Positions 2,272 through 52,292 of a stretch of 64,000 nt of DNA are shown one piece after another; positions within the stretch are counted from its first letter, which is position 1, and every line of letters starts with the position of its first letter. The DNA is taken from the NCBI RefSeq assembly GCF_003790525.1, contig NZ_CP033635.1; one strand, given 5' to 3'. The position numbers and the translations under genes were made by a program. The notes below the pieces were generated by a model. It worked only from the letters and a program-made list of their open reading frames with translations. It made no database searches and was not told the origin of the DNA. This DNA comes from Escherichia coli. Lineage in GTDB: Bacteria; Pseudomonadota; Gammaproteobacteria; Enterobacterales; Enterobacteriaceae.

Positions 2272-3108
2272 GTGGACGTAAGACAGAGCATCCACAGTGC
2301 GCATGCAAAAACGCTGGATACCCAGGGGTTGCGCAATGAATTTTTGGTTGAAAAGGTATTTGTCGCCGATGAGTACACCATGGTTTACAGCCACATTGAC
2401 CGTATTATTGTTGGCGGCATTATGCCGGTAACTAAAACGGTTTCCGTTGGCGGGGAAGTTGGTAAACAACTCGGGGTAAGCTATTTCCTGGAACGTCGCG
2501 AGTTAGGTGTTATCAATATTGGCGGTGCCGGTACGATTACCGTCGATGGTCAATGCTATGAAATCGGTCACCGCGAAGCCCTGTATGTTGGTAAAGGCGC
2601 AAAAGAAGTTGTCTTTGCCAGTATTGATACCGCTACTCCGGCGAAGTTTTATTACAATTGCGCACCTGCGCATACGACGTATCCCACCAAAAAAGTCACA
2701 CCAGACGAAGTATCTCCAGTCACGTTAGGCGATAACCTCACCAGTAACCGTCGCACGATTAACAAATATTTTGTCCCGGATGTGCTGGAAACCTGCCAAT
2801 TGAGTATGGGGCTGACGGAGCTGGCTCCAGGTAACTTGTGGAACACCATGCCGTGTCACACCCACGAGCGCCGGATGGAAGTTTATTTCTATTTCAATAT
2901 GGATGATGACGCCTGCGTTTTCCACATGATGGGGCAGCCGCAAGAAACGCGTCATATTGTGATGCATAACGAGCAGGCGGTGATCTCCCCGAGCTGGTCG
3001 ATCCATTCCGGCGTCGGAACCAAAGCTTATACCTTTATCTGGGGCATGGTCGGTGAAAACCAGGTTTTTGATGATATGGACCATGTGGCCGTTAAAGATT
3101 TGCGCTAG
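2272..3108 (+). CDS. kduI: 5-dehydro-4-deoxy-D-glucuronate isomerase
   Basis: 278-aa ORF starting [20 protein letters not shown] (GTG start); matches K-12 KduI; followed 29 bp later by kduD. Confidence 0.9.
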
Positions 3109-3137
3109 TTGTGGGCATAAACGAATAAGGTATTGTT

Positions 3138-3899
3138 ATGATTTTAAGTGCATTTTCTCTCGAAGGTAAAGTTGCGGTCGTCACTGGTTGTGATACTGGG
3201 CTGGGCCAGGGGATGGCGTTGGGGCTGGCGCAAGCGGGCTGTGACATTGTTGGCATTAACATCGTTGAACCGACTGAAACCATCAAGCAGGTCACGGCGC
3301 TGGGGCGTCGTTTTTTAAGCCTGACCGCCGATCTGCGAAAGATTGATGGCATTCCAGCACTGCTGGATCGCGCGGTAGCGGAGTTTGGTCATATTGATAT
3401 CCTGGTGAATAACGCCGGATTGATTCGCCGCGAAGACGCTCTCGAGTTCAGCGAAAAAGACTGGGACGATGTCATGAACCTGAATATCAAGAGCGTATTC
3501 TTCATGTCTCAGGCAGCGGCGAAACACTTTATCGCGCAAGGCAATGGCGGCAAGATTATCAATATCGCGTCAATGCTCTCCTTCCAGGGCGGGATCCGTG
3601 TGCCTTCTTATACCGCATCAAAAAGCGGCGTGATGGGCGTGACGCGATTGATGGCGAATGAATGGGCTAAACACAACATTAATGTTAATGCGATAGCTCC
3701 GGGTTACATGGCGACCAACAATACTCAACAACTACGGGCAGATGAACAACGTAGCGCGGAAATTCTCGACCGCATTCCAGCTGGCCGTTGGGGACTGCCG
3801 AGTGACCTGATGGGGCCGGTAGTGTTTCTTGCCTCCAGTGCTTCAGATTATGTGAATGGTTATACCATTGCCGTGGATGGCGGTTGGCTGGCTCGTTAA
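3138..3899 (+). CDS. kduD: 2-dehydro-3-deoxy-D-gluconate 5-dehydrogenase (SDR family)
   Basis: 253-aa ORF with SDR Rossmann motif (VTGCDTGLG) and catalytic YTASK; matches K-12 KduD. Confidence 0.9.
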   Translation: MILSAFSLEGKVAVVTGCDTGLGQGMALGLAQAGCDIVGINIVEPTETIKQVTALGRRFLSLTADLRKIDGIPALLDRAVAEFGHIDILVNNAGLIRREDALEFSEKDWDDVMNLNIKSVFFMSQAAAKHFIAQGNGGKIINIASMLSFQGGIRVPSYTASKSGVMGVTRLMANEWAKHNINVNAIAPGYMATNNTQQLRADEQRSAEILDRIPAGRWGLPSDLMGPVVFLASSASDYVNGYTIAVDGGWLAR

Positions 3900-3920: not shown

Positions 3921-3946
3921 ACCCTGCCGCATGGCAGGGTTTTTTA
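3921..3946 (+). terminator. Intrinsic terminator after kduD
   Basis: Hairpin ACCCTGCC-gcatg-GGCAGGGT followed by a T-run, 22 bp after the kduD stop. Confidence 0.6.
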
Positions 3947-4213
3947 TACCTGTAGATCATCATAATCCATATCATGGTTATGAAATAATCCATATCAATT
4001 ATCAATTAATGAACTTTATGAATTTTATCTGCTTTAAAATTAGTTGGTTAATAATAATCTCAATAATTCAACTTAATTTGAAAATTGGAATATCCATCAC
4101 ATAACGACATGTCGCAGCAATTTAATCCATATTTATGCTATTTCCGACCTGACACCTGTGTGAATTGTTCACGTATTTTTTCACTATGTCTTACTCTCTG
4201 CTGGCAGGAAAAA

Positions 4214-5632
4214 ATGGTTACTATCAATACGGAATCTGCTTTAACGCCACGTTCTTTGCGGGATACGCGGCGTATGAATATGTTTGTTTCGGTAGCTGCT
4301 GCGGTCGCAGGATTGTTATTTGGTCTTGATATCGGCGTAATCGCCGGAGCGTTGCCGTTCATTACCGATCACTTTGTACTGACCAGTCGTTTGCAGGAAT
4401 GGGTGGTCAGTAGCATGATGCTCGGCGCAGCAATTGGTGCGCTGTTTAATGGTTGGCTGTCGTTCCGCCTGGGGCGTAAATACAGCCTGATGGCGGGGGC
4501 CATCCTGTTTGTACTCGGTTCGATAGGGTCCGCTTTTGCGACCAGCGTAGAGATGTTAATCGCCGCTCGTGTGGTGTTGGGCATTGCTGTCGGGATCGCG
4601 TCTTACACCGCTCCTCTGTATCTTTCTGAAATGGCAAGTGAAAACGTTCGCGGTAAGATGATCAGCATGTACCAGTTGATGGTCACTCTCGGCATCGTGC
4701 TGGCGTTTTTATCCGATACAGCGTTCAGTTATAGCGGTAACTGGCGCGCAATGTTGGGGGTTCTTGCTTTACCAGCAGTTCTGCTGATTATTCTGGTGGT
4801 CTTCCTGCCAAATAGCCCGCGCTGGCTGGCGGAAAAGGGGCGTCATATTGAGGCGGAAGAAGTATTGCGTATGCTGCGCGATACGTCGGAAAAAGCGCGA
4901 GAAGAACTCAACGAAATTCGTGAAAGCCTGAAGTTAAAACAGGGCGGTTGGGCACTGTTTAAGATCAACCGTAACGTCCGTCGTGCTGTGTTTCTCGGTA
5001 TGTTGTTGCAGGCGATGCAGCAGTTTACCGGTATGAACATCATCATGTACTACGCGCCGCGTATCTTCAAAATGGCGGGCTTTACGACCACAGAACAACA
5101 GATGATTGCGACTCTGGTCGTGGGGCTGACCTTTATGTTCGCCACCTTCATTGCGGTCTTTACGGTAGATAAAGCAGGGCGTAAACCGGCTCTGAAAATT
5201 GGTTTCAGCGTGATGGCGTTAGGCACTCTGGTGCTGGGTTACTGCCTGATGCAGTTTGATAACGGTACGGCTTCCAGTGGCTTGTCCTGGCTCTCTGTTG
5301 GCATGACGATGATGTGTATTGCCGGTTATGCGATGAGCGCCGCGCCAGTGGTGTGGATCCTGTGCTCTGAGATTCAGCCGCTGAAATGCCGCGATTTTGG
5401 CATCACCTGTTCGACGACGACAAACTGGGTGTCGAATATGATTATCGGCGCGACCTTCCTGACACTGCTTGATAGCATTGGCGCTGCCGGTACGTTCTGG
5501 CTCTACACTGCGTTGAACATTGCGTTTGTGGGCATTACTTTCTGGCTCATTCCGGAAACCAAAAATGTCACGCTGGAACATATCGAGCGCAAACTGATGG
5601 CAGGCGAAAAGTTGAGAAATATCGGCGTCTGA
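4214..5632 (+). CDS. araE: Arabinose:H+ symporter (MFS sugar porter)
   Basis: ORF 4085..5632; the true start is most likely the internal ATG at 4214 ([15 protein letters not shown]..., the K-12 AraE N-terminus); the upstream 43 codons are an in-frame extension. Confidence 0.9.
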
Positions 5633-18058: not shown

Positions 18059-18165
18059 AGCCGTTTCCTTTTTATAATCACAACATAAGGAATATAAAAA
18101 TGGCAGAGGGAAGGGAAAAGTGAAAGAGAAAAATCTTAAGGCCAGCCGGATGCTGACCTTATTTG

Positions 18166-18384
18166 TTAACGTTCAATAATTTGCGAAACATCATCACGGT
18201 TAATTTGCATCGCGTTACCTTGCTGATCGTGATAACTCACCAGCCCGGTATCATCATCAATTTCAGGTTTTCCATCGGTCAAAATCATACGGCCATCTTT
18301 GGTCGCCATGACGTAATCACTGGAACACCCGGAAACAGCAAACGCCAGTCCGACTGCAGAAATTATTACTGCCCATTTTTTCAT
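18166..18384 (-). CDS. ygdR: Small lipoprotein (DUF903 family)
   Basis: 72-aa ORF with lipobox AVSGC; paralog of ygdI in this window. Confidence 0.85.
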
Positions 18385-18521
18385 CCGGTTATCCTCATTT
18401 GGCCCACCTATGATAATAGTCTGTTTATAAACCGACGTTATATATCTTGAAAGCAGGAAAATCTTAAACTGTGAGGGTAACAGGAGTGAGTACGCCCTCC
18501 CGCAGGAGAGCGTACGGAGTA

Positions 18522-23617: not shown

Positions 23618-24493
23618 ATGACCAGTAGCTATCTGCATTTTCCGGAGTTTGATCCGGTCATTTTCTCAATAGGACCCGTAGCGCTTCACTGGTACGGCCT
23701 GATGTATCTGGTGGGTTTCATTTTTGCAATGTGGCTGGCAACACGTCGGGCGAATCGTCCGGGCAGCGGCTGGACCAAAAATGAAGTTGAAAACTTACTC
23801 TATGCGGGCTTCCTCGGCGTCTTCCTCGGTGGACGTATTGGTTATGTTCTGTTCTACAATTTCCCGCAGTTTATGGCCGATCCGCTGTATCTGTTCCGTG
23901 TCTGGGACGGCGGCATGTCCTTCCACGGCGGCCTGATTGGCGTTATCGTGGTGATGATTATCTTCGCCCGCCGTACTAAACGTTCCTTCTTCCAGGTTTC
24001 TGATTTTATCGCCCCACTCATTCCGTTTGGTCTTGGTGCCGGGCGTCTGGGCAACTTTATTAACGGTGAATTGTGGGGCCGCGTTGACCCAAACTTCCCG
24101 TTTGCCATGCTGTTCCCTGGCTCCCGTACAGAAGATATTTTGCTGCTGCAAACCAACCCGCAGTGGCAATCCATTTTCGACACTTACGGTGTGCTGCCGC
24201 GCCACCCATCACAGCTTTACGAGCTGCTGCTGGAAGGTGTGGTGCTGTTTATTATCCTCAACCTGTATATTCGTAAACCGCGCCCAATGGGAGCTGTCTC
24301 AGGTTTGTTCCTGATTGGTTACGGCGCGTTTCGCATCATTGTTGAGTTTTTCCGCCAGCCCGACGCGCAGTTTACCGGTGCCTGGGTGCAGTACATTAGC
24401 ATGGGGCAAATTCTTTCCATCCCGATGATTGTCGCGGGTGTGATCATGATGGTCTGGGCATATCGTCGCAGCCCACAGCAACACGTTTCCTGA
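23618..24493 (+). CDS. lgt: Prolipoprotein diacylglyceryl transferase
   Basis: 291-aa membrane [37 protein letters not shown]... Confidence 0.9.
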
Positions 24494-42156: not shown

Positions 42157-42981
42157 ATGATCATCGAAAAAGTCATGAACAATAATTGTGTACAGGCATC
42201 GATGAATGGACAGGAGGTTATCATTTCTGGGCCTGGCGTCGGTTACAACAAAAAATATGGAATGTCGGTCCCTGAGCATCCGGCTAACCGGATTTTTTAT
42301 GTCAGAAATGAACAAAAAAATAAACTCTACAAATTGATTGAACATGTGGATATTGAGTATGTTTTTGTTGCCGAAAAAATAGTGCAATATGCGGAGAACA
42401 ATCTCGAAAAAAATCTCAATCCATCGCTACTATTGATTCTTGCTGATCACATTTCGAATGCAATATCCCGAGTCGCTTCAGGCATACAAATTAATAATGT
42501 TTTCCTTGATGAAATCAAAGCGTTGTACAAAGCAGAGTATGCGATAAGTCGCGATGCATTAACTATCATTAATGAGCAATTCAGCGTTCAACTTCCTGAT
42601 GATGAGATTGGTTTTATAGCATTGCATATTTTAAATAATTATGAAAATTCAGTTGATTATGAATCAGTACGGATTATTGAGTTGTCGCAAATAATCACGG
42701 GGCTTATTGAAGTTGTTTATAACAGAAAGGTGGACAGAAGTTCATTTAATTATTCCAGGTTCATGATACACCTTAAATATTTTTCAAGTCGCGTATTATG
42801 TAATGAAAAGATAAAACAAAAAGATATTGGTGACATCTATGAGCAGTTTCTTGAGAAAGACATCCTGTTACAGCGCGCAATTCATGAAATTGAACGGTAT
42901 CTGTATGCCACTTTTAAATATGAATTAATTTTAGAAGAAAAACTATATCTCTCAATTCGTACCAAAGTATTAATGGACTAA
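42157..42981 (+). CDS. BglG/LicT-family PRD-containing transcription antiterminator
   Basis: ORF track 42100..42981; start taken at the ATG at 42157; N-terminal CAT-like region (IEKVMNNNCVQASMNGQEVIISGPGVGY) and PRD regions with conserved His contexts (LPDDEIGFIALHIL, RFMIHLKYFSSRV) resembling BglG (LPKDEVGFIAMHL, RLVTHLKFLSWRI). Confidence 0.8.
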   Translation: MIIEKVMNNNCVQASMNGQEVIISGPGVGYNKKYGMSVPEHPANRIFYVRNEQKNKLYKLIEHVDIEYVFVAEKIVQYAENNLEKNLNPSLLLILADHISNAISRVASGIQINNVFLDEIKALYKAEYAISRDALTIINEQFSVQLPDDEIGFIALHILNNYENSVDYESVRIIELSQIITGLIEVVYNRKVDRSSFNYSRFMIHLKYFSSRVLCNEKIKQKDIGDIYEQFLEKDILLQRAIHEIERYLYATFKYELILEEKLYLSIRTKVLMD

Positions 42982-43012
42982 TTATATATAACATTTATAT
43001 GAGATAACCCAC

Positions 43013-44593
43013 ATGAAACAAAAGAAAGCCTGGAGTTTTTTTCAGAGCCTGGGAAAGGCATTCATGTATCCCATTGCTCTGCTAAGTGTATGTGGCATGA
43101 TGCTAGGGCTGGGAAGTGGTTTAGCCAGTGATGATATGGCAAAGTTAATTCCATTTCTGGCTATTCCAATAATTAAAACCATACTTGATTTCATTGTTAG
43201 TCTTGGTTTGTTTGCCTTTGTTAATTTACCTGTATTGTTTGCGATAGCGATTCCCTTAGGATTATTAAAAGATAAAGAGGATAAAGCCTATGGTGCTTTT
43301 TCTGGCTTAATTGGTTTTATGGCGATGCATCTGGGAACGAACTTTTATCTTAAACAGCACGACTTATTGGTCGCTGCTGACCAAATGTCGACACATGGGC
43401 AAACCATCATTCTGGGGATCCAGTCCTACAATACCAGCGTGTTAGGGGGAATTGTTGCTGGGTTATTAGTCGCCAGCATGTATAAAAAGATCGTTAATTT
43501 ACGCATTCCTGAATCATTAGGTTTTTATAGCGGCCCACGTCTGGTGCCTATCATTACACTGATTGTGATGAGTGGATTTGGTCTGATCATCCCTTTTATC
43601 TGGCCGCCGTTTTTCAATCTTTTCATGCTCATTGGCCACTGGATTTCAACTTCCGGTCCTGTTGGCTATTTTTTCTATGCAGTCGCCGAACGCGTGACGA
43701 TACCTTTTGGTTTAAATCACCTGGTGACGTCAGTTTTCCGCTTTACCCCCATCGGCGGATCGGCAGTGATCGGCGGCGAAGAGTATTATGGCACCCTGAA
43801 CATGTTTATGGCGTACGTCAAAGAGAATGCGGTCATTCCGCTGGATTTGGCGGGGAAAATGGAACAGGGCAAACTGATGATTCAGTATGGTCTGGCTGGT
43901 GCCGCGCTGGCGATGTATCGCACTGCTCATGCTCAAAACAGAAAAGCTATCAAAGCATTGCTTATTTCCGGGGTGCTTACAGTCATTATTGGCGGCGTCA
44001 GCGAACCGATTGAGTTTCTGTTCTTATTTGTCAGTCCACTGCTGTTTGTCTTCCATGCATTTATGAATGGATTCGCCAACATGGTCTTGCCATATATGGG
44101 CGTGAAGATGGGATTTACTGGCGATCTGATTCAATTTATTAGCTTTGGCGTATTGCGTGGCACAAGAACAGGTTGGCCAATAGCGGTGTGTGTCGAAGTG
44201 GCCTATTTCTTTATTTATTACTTTGTGTTCCGTTGGACTATTCTCAAATTTAACCTGATGACGGTAGGCCGTGAAGAGTCCAGTCCTGTCACGCTGAACG
44301 CTCATGAGGATACGGCTATAGCGGATATCCCAACTCCTGATAAATCAGAGCTGCAAGCGGCGGAGCAGATGGTTAAGGCACTTGGTGGTAAAGAGAATAT
44401 TAAGTCACTGGATAATTGCGTAACTCGTTTACGTTTAACAATCGCAGATATGGGATTGCTTGACGAGGCTGCAATAAAAAGAGCCGGCGGAATTGCGGTT
44501 GTTAAACTTGATCAAAATACCCTACAAGTCATTATCGGTACTAAAGTCATCGCCTTGCGTCGGGATATGGATAACTACATGGGGATATGCTGA
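43013..44593 (+). CDS. PTS glucose-family EIICB component, MalX-like
   Basis: 526-aa polytopic ORF with C-terminal EIIB motif NCVTRLR; collinear similarity to K-12 MalX (SYDLGKAFMYPIALLS vs FQQLGKTFMLPVALLS; EPIEFLFLFVSP vs EPLEFLFLFVAP). Confidence 0.85.
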   Translation: MKQKKAWSFFQSLGKAFMYPIALLSVCGMMLGLGSGLASDDMAKLIPFLAIPIIKTILDFIVSLGLFAFVNLPVLFAIAIPLGLLKDKEDKAYGAFSGLIGFMAMHLGTNFYLKQHDLLVAADQMSTHGQTIILGIQSYNTSVLGGIVAGLLVASMYKKIVNLRIPESLGFYSGPRLVPIITLIVMSGFGLIIPFIWPPFFNLFMLIGHWISTSGPVGYFFYAVAERVTIPFGLNHLVTSVFRFTPIGGSAVIGGEEYYGTLNMFMAYVKENAVIPLDLAGKMEQGKLMIQYGLAGAALAMYRTAHAQNRKAIKALLISGVLTVIIGGVSEPIEFLFLFVSPLLFVFHAFMNGFANMVLPYMGVKMGFTGDLIQFISFGVLRGTRTGWPIAVCVEVAYFFIYYFVFRWTILKFNLMTVGREESSPVTLNAHEDTAIADIPTPDKSELQAAEQMVKALGGKENIKSLDNCVTRLRLTIADMGLLDEAAIKRAGGIAVVKLDQNTLQVIIGTKVIALRRDMDNYMGIC

Positions 44594-45768
44594 TGGATGT
44601 TTTTAATACTCCTATTTCCCGCAAAGGAACATATTGTACCCAATGGGACTTTTGCGAGGACAGATTTGGTGTAAAAGATGTATTACCATTCTCTATTTCA
44701 GATATGGATCTTCCGATACCAGACGCTATCACCAGAGCATTAAAAAAACGTCTGGAACACCCGATTTTAGGGTACAGCCGTTGGCAGCATGATGACTATC
44801 TGAATGCGATAGTCAATTGGTATCATCAACAATATAAAACTGAAATCAAACCAGAATGGATCACCTATAGCCCAAGCGTGATGTACTCCATTGCTAAAGC
44901 AATAGAGTTATTGACATCGCATGGTGATAATATTCTCGTTTTTACACCTGTCTATAATGCATTTTTTGATATAATTAAACATAGCGAGAGAAATATTCTG
45001 ACAGCCTCTTTGATTATAAAAAATGAGGGGGGCTACGCTATCAATTGGCAAGATTTTGATCTTAAGATTCAAAGCGCAAAGATGGTGTTATTATGTAATC
45101 CTCATAACCCGACAGGAACAGTCTGGTCGGAAGAAGAACTGCATAAAATCGCTGCAAGCTGTACAAGGCATAATGTCTGGTTATGTTCAGATGAAATCCA
45201 TAGTGATTTTGTTTTTAATCGTAGCTTTACATCCGCGCTTAAAATAAAAAAAGAAAAAGTAGTAGTATTTAACTCGATATCGAAAACATTTAATGTTCCT
45301 GCACTAACAGGATCGTATATGATTTCAACTGACGATAATTTTAATCATAAGTTCAGAACGATATCGAGGTATCGCGATTTTGTAAACTCCCCATCAGTAC
45401 TGAATATAATTGCAACTATTATTGCCTATAACGAATGTGAGGGATGGTTAAAGTCATTAAAGGCACATATTGCCTCTAACATTCAATTCACCCAGCAGTA
45501 TCTGAACGAAAACACTCCAGAATTGATCGTAAGGCCAGCTGATGGTTGCTATTTTTCGTGGATAGATTGCTCTGCTATTGGTTATCCCTTTGATGAATTC
45601 TACAGTCGATTAATTCATGAAGGCAAAGTGGGCATTATGGCGGGGAATGTCTATGGAACGGAGGGGGAGGGCTACCTTCGTCTGAACCTGGCCTGCGGTC
45701 GAGAAAAATTATATATGGGGCTTACGCGTCTTGCGAGTGTAATTAAAAATATTAATCAAGGAAAATAA
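44587..45768 (+). CDS. PLP-dependent C-S lyase / aminotransferase class I-II, MalY-like
   Basis: 393-aa ORF overlapping the PTS stop; GTYCTQWDF vs MalY GTWCTQWDY; PLP-lysine context SISKTFNVPALTG vs MalY SGSKSFNIPALTG. Confidence 0.85.
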   Translation: MLMDVFNTPISRKGTYCTQWDFCEDRFGVKDVLPFSISDMDLPIPDAITRALKKRLEHPILGYSRWQHDDYLNAIVNWYHQQYKTEIKPEWITYSPSVMYSIAKAIELLTSHGDNILVFTPVYNAFFDIIKHSERNILTASLIIKNEGGYAINWQDFDLKIQSAKMVLLCNPHNPTGTVWSEEELHKIAASCTRHNVWLCSDEIHSDFVFNRSFTSALKIKKEKVVVFNSISKTFNVPALTGSYMISTDDNFNHKFRTISRYRDFVNSPSVLNIIATIIAYNECEGWLKSLKAHIASNIQFTQQYLNENTPELIVRPADGCYFSWIDCSAIGYPFDEFYSRLIHEGKVGIMAGNVYGTEGEGYLRLNLACGREKLYMGLTRLASVIKNINQGK

Positions 45769-45770
45769 AA

Positions 45771-46367
45771 ATGAACAGCACGGATCTTATCCATCTCATT
45801 AAACATTTTATGCGTAACGAACATAAAGCAGTTGAAGAAGTTATTGATTCCCCCCTTTCGGAGGTCGCAAATTTAATTAAAGTATTACAGTCTTGTCAGG
45901 GGAAAGTTGTTTTTATTGGTGTCGGTAAGTCCGGTATTATTGCCCGAAAACTCGCCGCAACATTTGCCAGCACTGGAACTCCCTCGTTTTTTGTTCACGG
46001 TACGGAAGCGGTACACGGCGACCTTGGAATGGTGGCGAAAGACGATGTTGTTATTCTTATTTCAAACAGTGGTGAGACGGCGGAAATCCTGGCGACACTG
46101 CCTAGTCTGAAAAAAATGGGTAATTATTTGATCTCTTTTACACGCAGTCATCACTCATCGCTTGCGATAAGTTGTGATTTATCCGTTGAAATTCCCGTAA
46201 AAAGTGAGGCGGATAATTTAGGTTTAGCGCCGTCATGCTCATCAACAGTCGTTCTGGTTGTTGGTGATGCGGTGGCGCTTGCGCTCTCCGAATTGAAAAA
46301 GTTTACTCGTGCTGATTTCGGCTTATATCATCCAGGAGGTGCGCTCGGTATTAAAGCAAACTCATAA
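45771..46367 (+). CDS. SIS-domain sugar-phosphate isomerase (KdsD/GutQ-like, no CBS domains)
   Basis: 198-aa ORF; GVGKSGIIARKLAATFASTGTPSFFVH and LISNSGETAEIL closely resemble the SIS core of arabinose-5-phosphate isomerases. Confidence 0.75.
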   Translation: MNSTDLIHLIKHFMRNEHKAVEEVIDSPLSEVANLIKVLQSCQGKVVFIGVGKSGIIARKLAATFASTGTPSFFVHGTEAVHGDLGMVAKDDVVILISNSGETAEILATLPSLKKMGNYLISFTRSHHSSLAISCDLSVEIPVKSEADNLGLAPSCSSTVVLVVGDAVALALSELKKFTRADFGLYHPGGALGIKANS

Positions 46368-46429
46368 TTTCAAAATATAAATACAGTAACCGGTCACGCC
46401 ATCTTTTGGGGTGGCGTTCTTTGAAGTGA

Positions 46430-47386
46430 GTGTCAGCTATGAAAAATGTTCTGGTCACCGTCCCCAGCTTTTCAGCACGCTGTGTTTCCGCCAGCAAGTT
46501 GCTAAGAGAGAATAATTTTAATCTTATTATTAAGAATAATGTGGAGCATCTGCTTAAATCAGAATCCACTGCATTACGAGAATCTATTTGCGCGGTCATC
46601 GCCGGAAAAGATTGTTATCAGGCGGACACGCTATCATTGCTGTCTGGTGTGAAAATAATATCGAGATTCGGGACGGGGATAGACAATATTGATCTTCGTG
46701 CGGCACAGCAATCCGGTATTGTTGTCAATAATGCGGTTGGGATTAATTCAAATGCGGTTGCGGAATTTATCATTGGACTTATCTTCGCGAGCATGAGAAA
46801 TATCCCCGGTAGCTATCATGCGATGCAAAATGGTTATTGGGGCGAGTCGCATGGCTGCGAGTTACAAGGTAAACGTATTGGCCTGCTTGGCTACGGCAAT
46901 ATTGGCAAAACACTGGCGAAAAGGTTATCTGGTTTTGATGTTGAGCTTTTAGCTTTTGACAAACAACCCGATTTCCAGGCCGCAGGCAAAGATGGAGTTC
47001 AGTTCGTATCAATTGAAGATATCTTTATGCAGTCTCATGTCATCATCGTTCTTTTGCCATTTTCTCCGGAGCTGGAGAACTTCATTAGTCATAAATATTT
47101 GTCGATGATGCGCAATGGTGCTCTGATCATCAACGCCGCAAGGGGAAAGTTGCTGGATGAGGGTGCTTTACTTCAGGTAATTGAAGAACGAAATGTTTTT
47201 GCAGCACTGGATGTGTTTAGCTCTGAACCGCTAGCGCAATTTAGCCCATTGCTACATGCCAAGAATATCATTACAACGCCGCATATTGCGGCCGCCACCG
47301 TTGAGTCATACCAGCAAACCGGGATATACGTTGCCCAGTCGATAATTGATTACTTCGCAGGAAGGGAGATAAAAAACGTGCTGTGA
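46430..47386 (+). CDS. D-isomer-specific 2-hydroxyacid dehydrogenase family protein (NAD-binding)
   Basis: 318-aa ORF with dinucleotide-binding motif GLLGYGNIGKTLAKRL and family-typical C-terminal TPHIAAAT. Confidence 0.75.
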   Translation: MSAMKNVLVTVPSFSARCVSASKLLRENNFNLIIKNNVEHLLKSESTALRESICAVIAGKDCYQADTLSLLSGVKIISRFGTGIDNIDLRAAQQSGIVVNNAVGINSNAVAEFIIGLIFASMRNIPGSYHAMQNGYWGESHGCELQGKRIGLLGYGNIGKTLAKRLSGFDVELLAFDKQPDFQAAGKDGVQFVSIEDIFMQSHVIIVLLPFSPELENFISHKYLSMMRNGALIINAARGKLLDEGALLQVIEERNVFAALDVFSSEPLAQFSPLLHAKNIITTPHIAAATVESYQQTGIYVAQSIIDYFAGREIKNVL

Positions 47387-51650: not shown

Positions 51651-51841
51651 GGTACTCCTCGGCTTGATGCACCGATCGTGACGCAAAATTCACTTTGATA
51701 CAAGGAGAGTGCTAACCATCAGAATTATCTGGATATCCTGGCGAAGCCGCGTCAGTAACATATGCTGAATAGTGTTAGGCGTTAATTTTAGCCTGTTAAT
51801 CAATACTATTAAGATTTATTAATCGCTTTAAGGAGAAGATG

Positions 51842-52069
51842 ATGAAAAAGACTGCCGCAATTATTTCTGCCTGTATGCTGACTTTTGCCCTGAGCGCCTG
51901 TTCCGGTTCGAACTATGTGATGCACACCAATGACGGACGTACCATCGTCTCTGACGGCAAACCACAGACTGATAACGATACCGGTATGATTTCGTATAAA
52001 GACGCTAATGGCAACAAACAGCAGATCAACCGTACTGACGTGAAAGAGATGGTCGAACTGGATCAGTAA
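51842..52069 (+). CDS. ygdI: Small lipoprotein (DUF903 family)
   Basis: 75-aa [36 protein letters not shown]...; clear paralog of ygdR. Confidence 0.85.
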
Positions 52070-52086: not shown

Positions 52087-52292
52087 AAAAAAAAGCACCG
52101 CAATTAGGCGGTGCTACATTAATCACTATGGACAGACAGGGTAAATGTACAGGAAGTGAAAAAAGGTAGCTTTGCTACCATGGTCTGAATCGCAGACCAA
52201 TTGCAAACACAACAACACAACATCACAACCGTAAGCCAAAAGTTCACCAGAACACGCATTCCGATAAAACTTTTCGTTCCGGCTCAGGAAGT
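52087..52292 (-). ncRNA. gcvB: GcvB small RNA
   Basis: Minus-strand sequence starts ACTTCCTGAGCCGGAACGAAAAGTTTTATCGGAATGCGTGTTCTGGTGAACTTTTGGCTTACGGTTGTGATGTTGTGTTGTTGTGTTTGC and ends in hairpin GCACCGCCTAATTGCGGTGC plus a U-run; divergent from gcvA. Confidence 0.85.

Follow-up and report, generated by a model that had tools for sequence, protein, structure and literature searches.

The closest described counterparts of the two E. coli lipoproteins considered here, YgdI and YgdR, are the solved members of the DUF903 family (PF06004/NF033216), from which they differ in nothing. The chains of PDB entries 2jn0 and 3fif match YgdR residues 21-72 without a difference, and structures exist for five other DUF903 proteins (5cai, 2ra2, 2rd1, 3bdu and 2rb6). 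A second likeness is that to the small beta-barrels of the Sm/LSm/Hfq type, with 6-20 % identity to Hfq and Sm chains, but the N-terminal helix is absent from the YgdI model and the DUF903 protein is exported and lipid-anchored. Neither YgdI nor YgdR matched an LSM or Hfq profile, the Pfam scan at E <= 0.01 giving DUF903 alone, and because both proteins are exported RNA is implausible as their ligand. The RpoS/Rcs lipoproteins OsmB, OsmE, EcnB, YbaY and MliC, most of them without a known function, appear in the same induction lists as YgdI and YgdR (LolCDE inhibition and rpoS comparisons) and are like them in size and outer-membrane targeting; however, they are unrelated in sequence, as the Pfam scan returned only DUF903 for the present pair, and have another fold.

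The initial annotation had picked out, in the window (the whole 64-kb stretch of E. coli DNA analysed), two small lipoprotein genes about 33 kb apart and had read them as an ancient duplication of a DUF903-type gene of unknown function with both copies retained. The genes and their parts are as follows.

51842-52069, plus strand: ygdI coding sequence, 75 aa and a stop codon (ORF list, Pfam/NCBIfam matches, RefSeq annotation at the matching position)
51839, plus strand: upstream ATG of ygdI (the ORF list gives a 75/76-aa ORF at 51839/51842-52069)
51899-51901, plus strand: codon of Cys20 of YgdI, the predicted lipidation site, after a signal peptide of residues 1-19
about 51911-52057, plus strand: DUF903 barrel of YgdI, residues 24-72
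18166-18384, minus strand: ygdR coding sequence, 72 aa and a stop codon (ORF list, Pfam/NCBIfam matches, RefSeq annotation)
18327-18325, minus strand: codon of Cys20 of YgdR, the predicted lipidation site, after a signal peptide of residues 1-19
about 18318-18172, minus strand: DUF903 barrel of YgdR, residues 23-71

The second ATG of ygdI (51842) aligns with the start of the orthologues, lies 6 nt past AAGGAG and is the start given in RefSeq, where the two genes are labelled 'ygdI: YgdI/YgdR family lipoprotein' and 'ygdR: lipoprotein YgdR'. They are located on opposite strands with a spacing of about 33.5 kb (18384 to 51842), in agreement with the distance given initially. The protein sequences quoted at that time were exact and matched the ORF translations, and the claimed full-length homology was confirmed by pairwise alignment: 43 of 72 residues are identical (60 %), with 75 % positives, one gap and E = 1e-31 (BLASTP). 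Both proteins cover the whole 49-position Pfam profile PF06004 (83.9 bits for YgdI and 85.9 bits for YgdR, against a curated cut-off of 27 bits) and the whole 71-position NCBIfam profile NF033216, lipo_YgdI_YgdR (113.2 and 105.9 bits, respectively, curated cut-off 42 bits), which upholds the assignment to a DUF903-type family. Each N-terminus comprises MKK, a hydrophobic stretch and, as had been noticed, a lipobox at residues 17-20 (LSAC in YgdI and VSGC in YgdR, both conforming to the pattern [LVI][ASTVI][GAS]C), an arrangement also present in most full-length family representatives. A tblastn search of the 64-kb window gave no third DUF903 copy.

E. coli chromosomes such as that of strain 2D (NZ_CP059003.1) match the ygdI and ygdR regions at 100 % identity; annotated under these names, the two are present in 5425 and 5424, respectively, of 5426 complete E. 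coli genomes, in accordance with the earlier statement that both copies are retained. In the annotated region ygdI stands among gcvA, csdA and csdE, ygdR is found in the order mutH, ygdQ (TerC family), ygdR, tas, and recBCD, ptrA, thyA, lgt and ptsP are located between the two neighbourhoods. The product of lgt (window about 23618-24493, plus strand) is prolipoprotein diacylglyceryl transferase, which modifies the lipobox cysteine of all lipoproteins; its position between the two lipoprotein genes is probably a coincidence.

The mature domain of YgdI was modelled with AF2 on a 40-sequence alignment. The model has a mean pLDDT of 89.7 and five strands, the first of which begins at mature residue 5, so that only about three residues would link the lipidated cysteine to the barrel. 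As modelled, the fold is a generic five-strand Sm/SH3-like small beta-barrel, a single domain of about 50 residues. Sm-like barrels usually function as rings. The crystal entries of DUF903 proteins contain 2, 3, 6, 6, 7 and 8 chains, with 9 chains over the two YgdR entries, and counts as varied as these do not indicate one assembly. The mature N-termini are Cys-Ser-Gly in YgdI and Cys-Ser-Ser in YgdR; according to the +2 rule serine belongs to the residues Lol-sorted to the outer membrane, whereas aspartate, the inner-membrane retention signal, is found at +2 in neither protein. The Sm/SH3-like small-barrel fold is already recorded in InterPro (PMC5437024). His-tagged YgdI was reported in the outer membrane and vesicle fractions, with the vesicle share increased after peroxide (PMC8284480), and YgdI is listed as a 'verified lipoprotein' in a published gene table (PMC8767339).

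The sequences flanking the two genes contain the following elements.

51738-51766, plus strand: putative ygdI promoter, CTGGCG (51738-51743), a 17-nt spacer and TATGCT (51761-51766), proposed from conservation
51830-51835, plus strand: Shine-Dalgarno sequence AAGGAG of ygdI, read in the sequence and conserved in the upstream alignment
52094-52115, no strand assigned: G+C-rich hairpin, 25 nt past the ygdI stop codon (terminator scan, sequence, Rfam GcvB match)
52087-52292, minus strand: GcvB small RNA (Rfam RF00022, 199 bits), convergent with ygdI
18424-18467, minus strand: putative ygdR promoter region, TTAAGATTTTCCT (18467-18455), TTTCAA (18452-18447), a 17-nt spacer and TATAAA (18429-18424)
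18137-18161, minus strand: intrinsic-terminator-like hairpin directly past the ygdR stop codon, a 10-pair stem followed by AGATTTTTCT (terminator scan)

In an alignment of 12 genera TATGCT was the sole strongly conserved block upstream of ygdI, TATGCT or TATCCT occurred 80-136 nt before the ygdI start in 79 of 80 orthologous loci, and the sigma-70 scan gave no better promoter on the ygdI strand. TATGCT and CTGGCG are therefore proposed as the candidate ygdI promoter, which would leave a 5' UTR of about 70 nt. CAATACT (51801-51807) was also considered as a sigma-S -10 motif of ygdI and dropped, since it is E. coli-specific in the 12-genus alignment whereas TATGCT is conserved. The hairpin at 52094-52115 is the GcvB terminator on the minus strand, where T9 follows it; on the plus strand A9 precedes it and no T run follows. 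As a terminator of ygdI it would be weak at best, and because it has no T run on that strand ygdI transcripts may run antisense into gcvB, the 3' end of which is 17 nt from the ygdI stop codon. At ygdR the box at 18467-18455 presumably resembles an RcsB box, but with one base fewer between the half-sites. It is kept in Salmonella as TTAAGATTTTGCT and partly in Kosakonia; as the RcsB box of ygdR it is only a lead.

Two minor features of the ygdR flanks were observed. A 13-nt direct repeat surrounds the gene (18127-18139 and 18455-18467, AGAAAAATCTTAA / AGGAAAATCTTAA on the plus strand), one copy coinciding with the RcsB-box-like sequence of the promoter region and the other lying past the ygdR terminator, upstream of tas; the repeat may be due to chance or may represent a shared regulatory site. 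In the Salmonella ygdR leader (about 3930-3990 of the Salmonella locus) a motif of about 15 nt, CAGACTATTATCAGA, is tandemly duplicated, and it is single in E. coli.

Published expression data place both genes under stress control and agree with a different wiring of each copy. In Salmonella ygdI gave 1871 normalised reads in the wild type and 23 in an rpoS deletion strain (PMC4330354), and in the literature it counts among the most strongly RpoS-dependent genes. In Citrobacter it was down in a cpxRA deletion strain and was called RpoS-regulated (PMC6153362). A LolCDE inhibitor raised ygdI 25-fold and ygdR 7.8-fold, and ygdR is noted in a table of the same study as Rcs-induced upon peptidoglycan damage (PMC5105897); a cathelicidin-derived peptide increased both modestly (PMC6737244). 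The one genetic signal is a fitness gain of transposon insertions in ygdI under trimethoprim and sulfamethoxazole (PMC8767339). This signal is suspected to be a neighbour effect of gcvB/gcvA, given the proximity of the GcvB 3' end to the ygdI stop codon and the control of folate-linked glycine cleavage by gcvA and gcvB. The literature searched contained neither a deletion phenotype nor a partner of YgdI or YgdR, in line with the 'unknown function' of the initial annotation. YgdR has reportedly been linked to synthetic-peptide uptake, a link given no weight here.

The split between the two copies is old. At the DNA level ygdI and ygdR are 59 % identical, with an identity of 36 % at third codon positions; pS is 0.81, beyond the Jukes-Cantor saturation limit, and dN is 0.38. 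Between E. coli and Salmonella dN/dS is about 0.08 for ygdI and about 0.04 for ygdR, which indicates purifying selection on both and bears out their retention. In a scan of one genome per species YgdI orthologues were found at 80 loci, with 77-100 % identity, in Enterobacteriaceae, Erwiniaceae (Erwinia, Pantoea, Winslowiella) and Serratia. In all 80 loci ygdI is flanked upstream by csdA, which runs on the opposite strand, and directly downstream by gcvB; in 78 of them gcvA comes next, the remaining two stopping short of gcvA. In the homologue search with YgdR all the sequences listed were near-identical orthologues, belonging to Enterobacteriaceae and related genera; the order mutH-(terC)-ygdR-tas is held in Salmonella, Kosakonia, Rouxiella/Rahnella and Musicola (formerly Dickeya), with two genes inserted before tas in Rouxiella/Rahnella. 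Since each copy occupies its own locus across families, the two-copy state is older than the split of the Enterobacterales families, and the word 'ancient' was well chosen. The upstream regions of ygdI and ygdR bear no relation to each other, and within either orthologue group the upstream region is conserved. The dating of the two-copy state and the separately conserved, unrelated promoters are modest additions of this analysis. It is virtually certain that the pair consists of ygdI and ygdR, the two chromosomal DUF903 lipoprotein genes of E. coli, and that it is ancient.

The family extends beyond this pair. The DUF903 profile search gave 322 hits at E <= 0.001 among 1.84 billion cluster representatives, a family size that is only approximate because many of the hits are artefacts of assembly, with frameshifts or chimeras. 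At least four enterobacterial types were distinguished: YgdI, YgdR, type 3 (CSSNQxxKTTDGKTIVTDGKPQVD...ELDN), which is chromosomal in Enterobacter species, where carAB immediately precedes it, and type 4 (CTTNYVMTTKSGQTIV...). No copy of type 3 was found within the 64-kb window of E. coli. By tblastn against plasmids, family members were detected on 381 plasmid records, 278 of them mobilizable, the carriers being mostly Enterobacter, Pantoea, Klebsiella and Salmonella. Many of these plasmids are tiny. In Enterobacter, Klebsiella, Salmonella and Leclercia, mobilizable plasmids of the ColE1-like kind and of very small size were seen to carry one DUF903 lipoprotein gene or a tandem pair of two subtypes. 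Examples from outside the window are listed below.

1499-1726 of NZ_CP042498.1: DUF903 lipoprotein gene of pE61_005
2854-3081 and 3103-3336 of NZ_AP019693.1: tandem DUF903 lipoprotein genes of pSL180013-1
4954-5187 of its plasmid record: a further plasmid DUF903 lipoprotein gene
4001-4234 of an Enterobacter-type contig: type 3 DUF903 gene (CSSNQAVKTTDGKTIVTDGKPQVD...ELDN), directly downstream of carAB

pE61_005 (2495 bp) contains only rop, a 72-aa hypothetical ORF and the single DUF903 lipoprotein gene, and pSL180013-1 (4096 bp) carries mobC, mbeB and mbeD with the tandem pair on the opposite strand just past mbeD. A 4448-bp Klebsiella plasmid with two such lipoproteins has been described in a bioRxiv paper that makes no comment on their function. 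The plasmid relatives, often present as tandem pairs, are a third modest addition of this analysis. They show the mobility of the family and offer a simple experimental handle on its function; they leave the verdict on ygdI and ygdR unchanged.

Both the reality and the origin of the pair could be explained otherwise. Resemblance by chance, or an ORF that is no real gene, might be suggested by the shortness of the two ORFs and by the longer antisense ORF that overlaps each of them in the mechanical ORF list, but this explanation is already refuted and keeps a negligible probability: the E value of the alignment, the curated family matches, dN/dS far below 1, the solved structure and the protein seen in published proteomics and immunoblots all contradict it. 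A more serious question is whether the pair arose by the duplication that the initial annotation assumed, or whether ygdI and ygdR came in as two independent acquisitions, with the plasmid pool as one conceivable source, before the Enterobacterales radiated. The wide occurrence of the family on mobilizable plasmids would fit separate acquisition, as would the third chromosomal type adjoining carAB in Enterobacter and the G+C content of 0.47 (ygdI) and 0.44 (ygdR) compared to 0.506 for the window, although low G+C is common in short genes for secreted proteins. In a neighbour-joining tree of 54 mature domains (54 positions, 200 bootstraps) the YgdI-locus and YgdR-locus groups are kept apart by the plasmid, type 3 and type 4 lineages; however, the bootstrap was 40 % for the YgdI group and 2.5-3.5 % at deeper nodes, so that the topology carries no weight and does not order the duplication and transfer events. 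Both loci are stably syntenic across families, and mobile-element remnants are absent beside either gene, apart from the 13-nt repeat around ygdR, which may be due to chance. Separate acquisition is accordingly considered unlikely. The two genes can safely be called ancient paralogs, and in-place duplication is the simpler reading, not a proven one; of the earlier 'ancient duplication' the ancient paralogy thus stands, whereas duplication as opposed to separate acquisition cannot be demonstrated from 54 alignable positions with bootstrap values of 2.5-40 %.

As to the role of the pair, we tentatively propose that YgdI and YgdR, exported as lipoprotein precursors and Lol-sorted to the outer membrane, would be held flat on its periplasmic face as small binding modules, would be made under envelope stress or growth arrest, and would act by binding to a protein, glycan or lipid of the envelope and not as catalysts. 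This stress-induced, outer-membrane-anchored binding module is suggested by the fold, the anchor geometry and the expression data, with the periplasmic orientation assumed, and no catalytic-looking family match was obtained for either protein. Genomic context does not point to a partner. In every context read the gene stood by itself, in most cases with at least about 100 nt free on each side, and a conserved neighbour gene was found in none of the lineages; since four distant homologues have no neighbouring gene in common, guilt by association is of no help. Regulatory subfunctionalisation, with each copy answering to a stress regulon of its own, may account for the retention of two copies in addition to their 40 % divergence in sequence, an explanation to which we give an even chance. 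Functional redundancy, with both copies kept for dosage or robustness only, would agree with the common fold, anchor and predicted compartment, with the induction of both genes by the LolCDE inhibitor and the cathelicidin-derived peptide, and with the lack of a reported single-gene phenotype. It is nevertheless improbable: 40 % of positions differ between the copies while the orthologue groups are far tighter (YgdI 77-100 % across three families), the two upstream regions show no relationship, the reported regulators are RpoS and Cpx for ygdI and Rcs for ygdR, and over such a time span genuine redundancy seldom leaves both copies in nearly every genome.

A different role is suggested by the plasmids, namely that the DUF903 barrel serves in exclusion or protection at the outer membrane, where it would block the entry of DNA, phage, bacteriocin or another outside agent, and that the chromosomal copies are domesticated plasmid genes. 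Very small plasmids seldom keep useless genes, and one DUF903 lipoprotein gene or a tandem pair is found on ColE1-like plasmids of 2.5-4 kb. In the mob-bearing 4.1-kb pSL180013-1 the pair has the same position and orientation as exc1/exc2 of ColE1, and Exc2 is annotated as a lipoprotein, like the DUF903 proteins; in Serratia, moreover, a DUF903 orthogroup correlated with the presence of T6SS (PMC12165300). Exc1 and Exc2 are, however, proteins of 139 and 145 aa without detectable DUF903 similarity, and they were rejected as relatives because the ColE1 ORFs gave no DUF903 match in Pfam even at E <= 1. Exclusion by ColE1 is attributed to mbeD, the role of ExcI being reported as unknown (PMC2831885). 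YgdI, YgdR and two plasmid copies had no PADLOC match at E <= 0.1, and PHROG gave nothing meaningful, only weak N-terminal matches read as a signal-peptide effect. The stress regulation of the chromosomal genes is not required by such a role either, and we regard a function in exclusion as hardly probable. Still more speculative, and given only a slim chance, is a combined model in which DUF903 barrels would form Sm-like rings, set against the outer membrane from the inside, and would plug or shield an envelope entry route, the plasmid tandem pairs being a selfish form that protects or excludes and YgdI and YgdR chromosomal versions that RpoS or Rcs would turn on in response to a compromised envelope.

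The overall explanation preferred here, an ancient pair of DUF903 lipoprotein genes whose products may be stress-induced binding modules, is held with good confidence, the identity claim being weighted most. The observation and its interpretation are correct but already known, and as a finding the pair adds nothing: every E. coli genome has the two genes annotated under their names, curated profiles exist for the family, and the structures, including that of YgdR, are solved and deposited. The pair is rather a reminder that universally conserved, highly stress-induced outer-membrane lipoproteins with solved structures may still have no assigned function.

One further observation concerns the DNA between the two genes. 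In the matching strain the interval from three tRNA-Met genes to amiC, at about 42157-47386 of the window, is occupied by five genes, which encode a PRD-domain regulator, a PTS EIIC, a MalY/PatB-family protein, a KpsF/GutQ-type isomerase and a phosphoglycerate dehydrogenase. We take these five genes to be absent from the corresponding site in K-12, and the segment looks like a strain-specific sugar-utilisation islet adjoining the tRNA genes.
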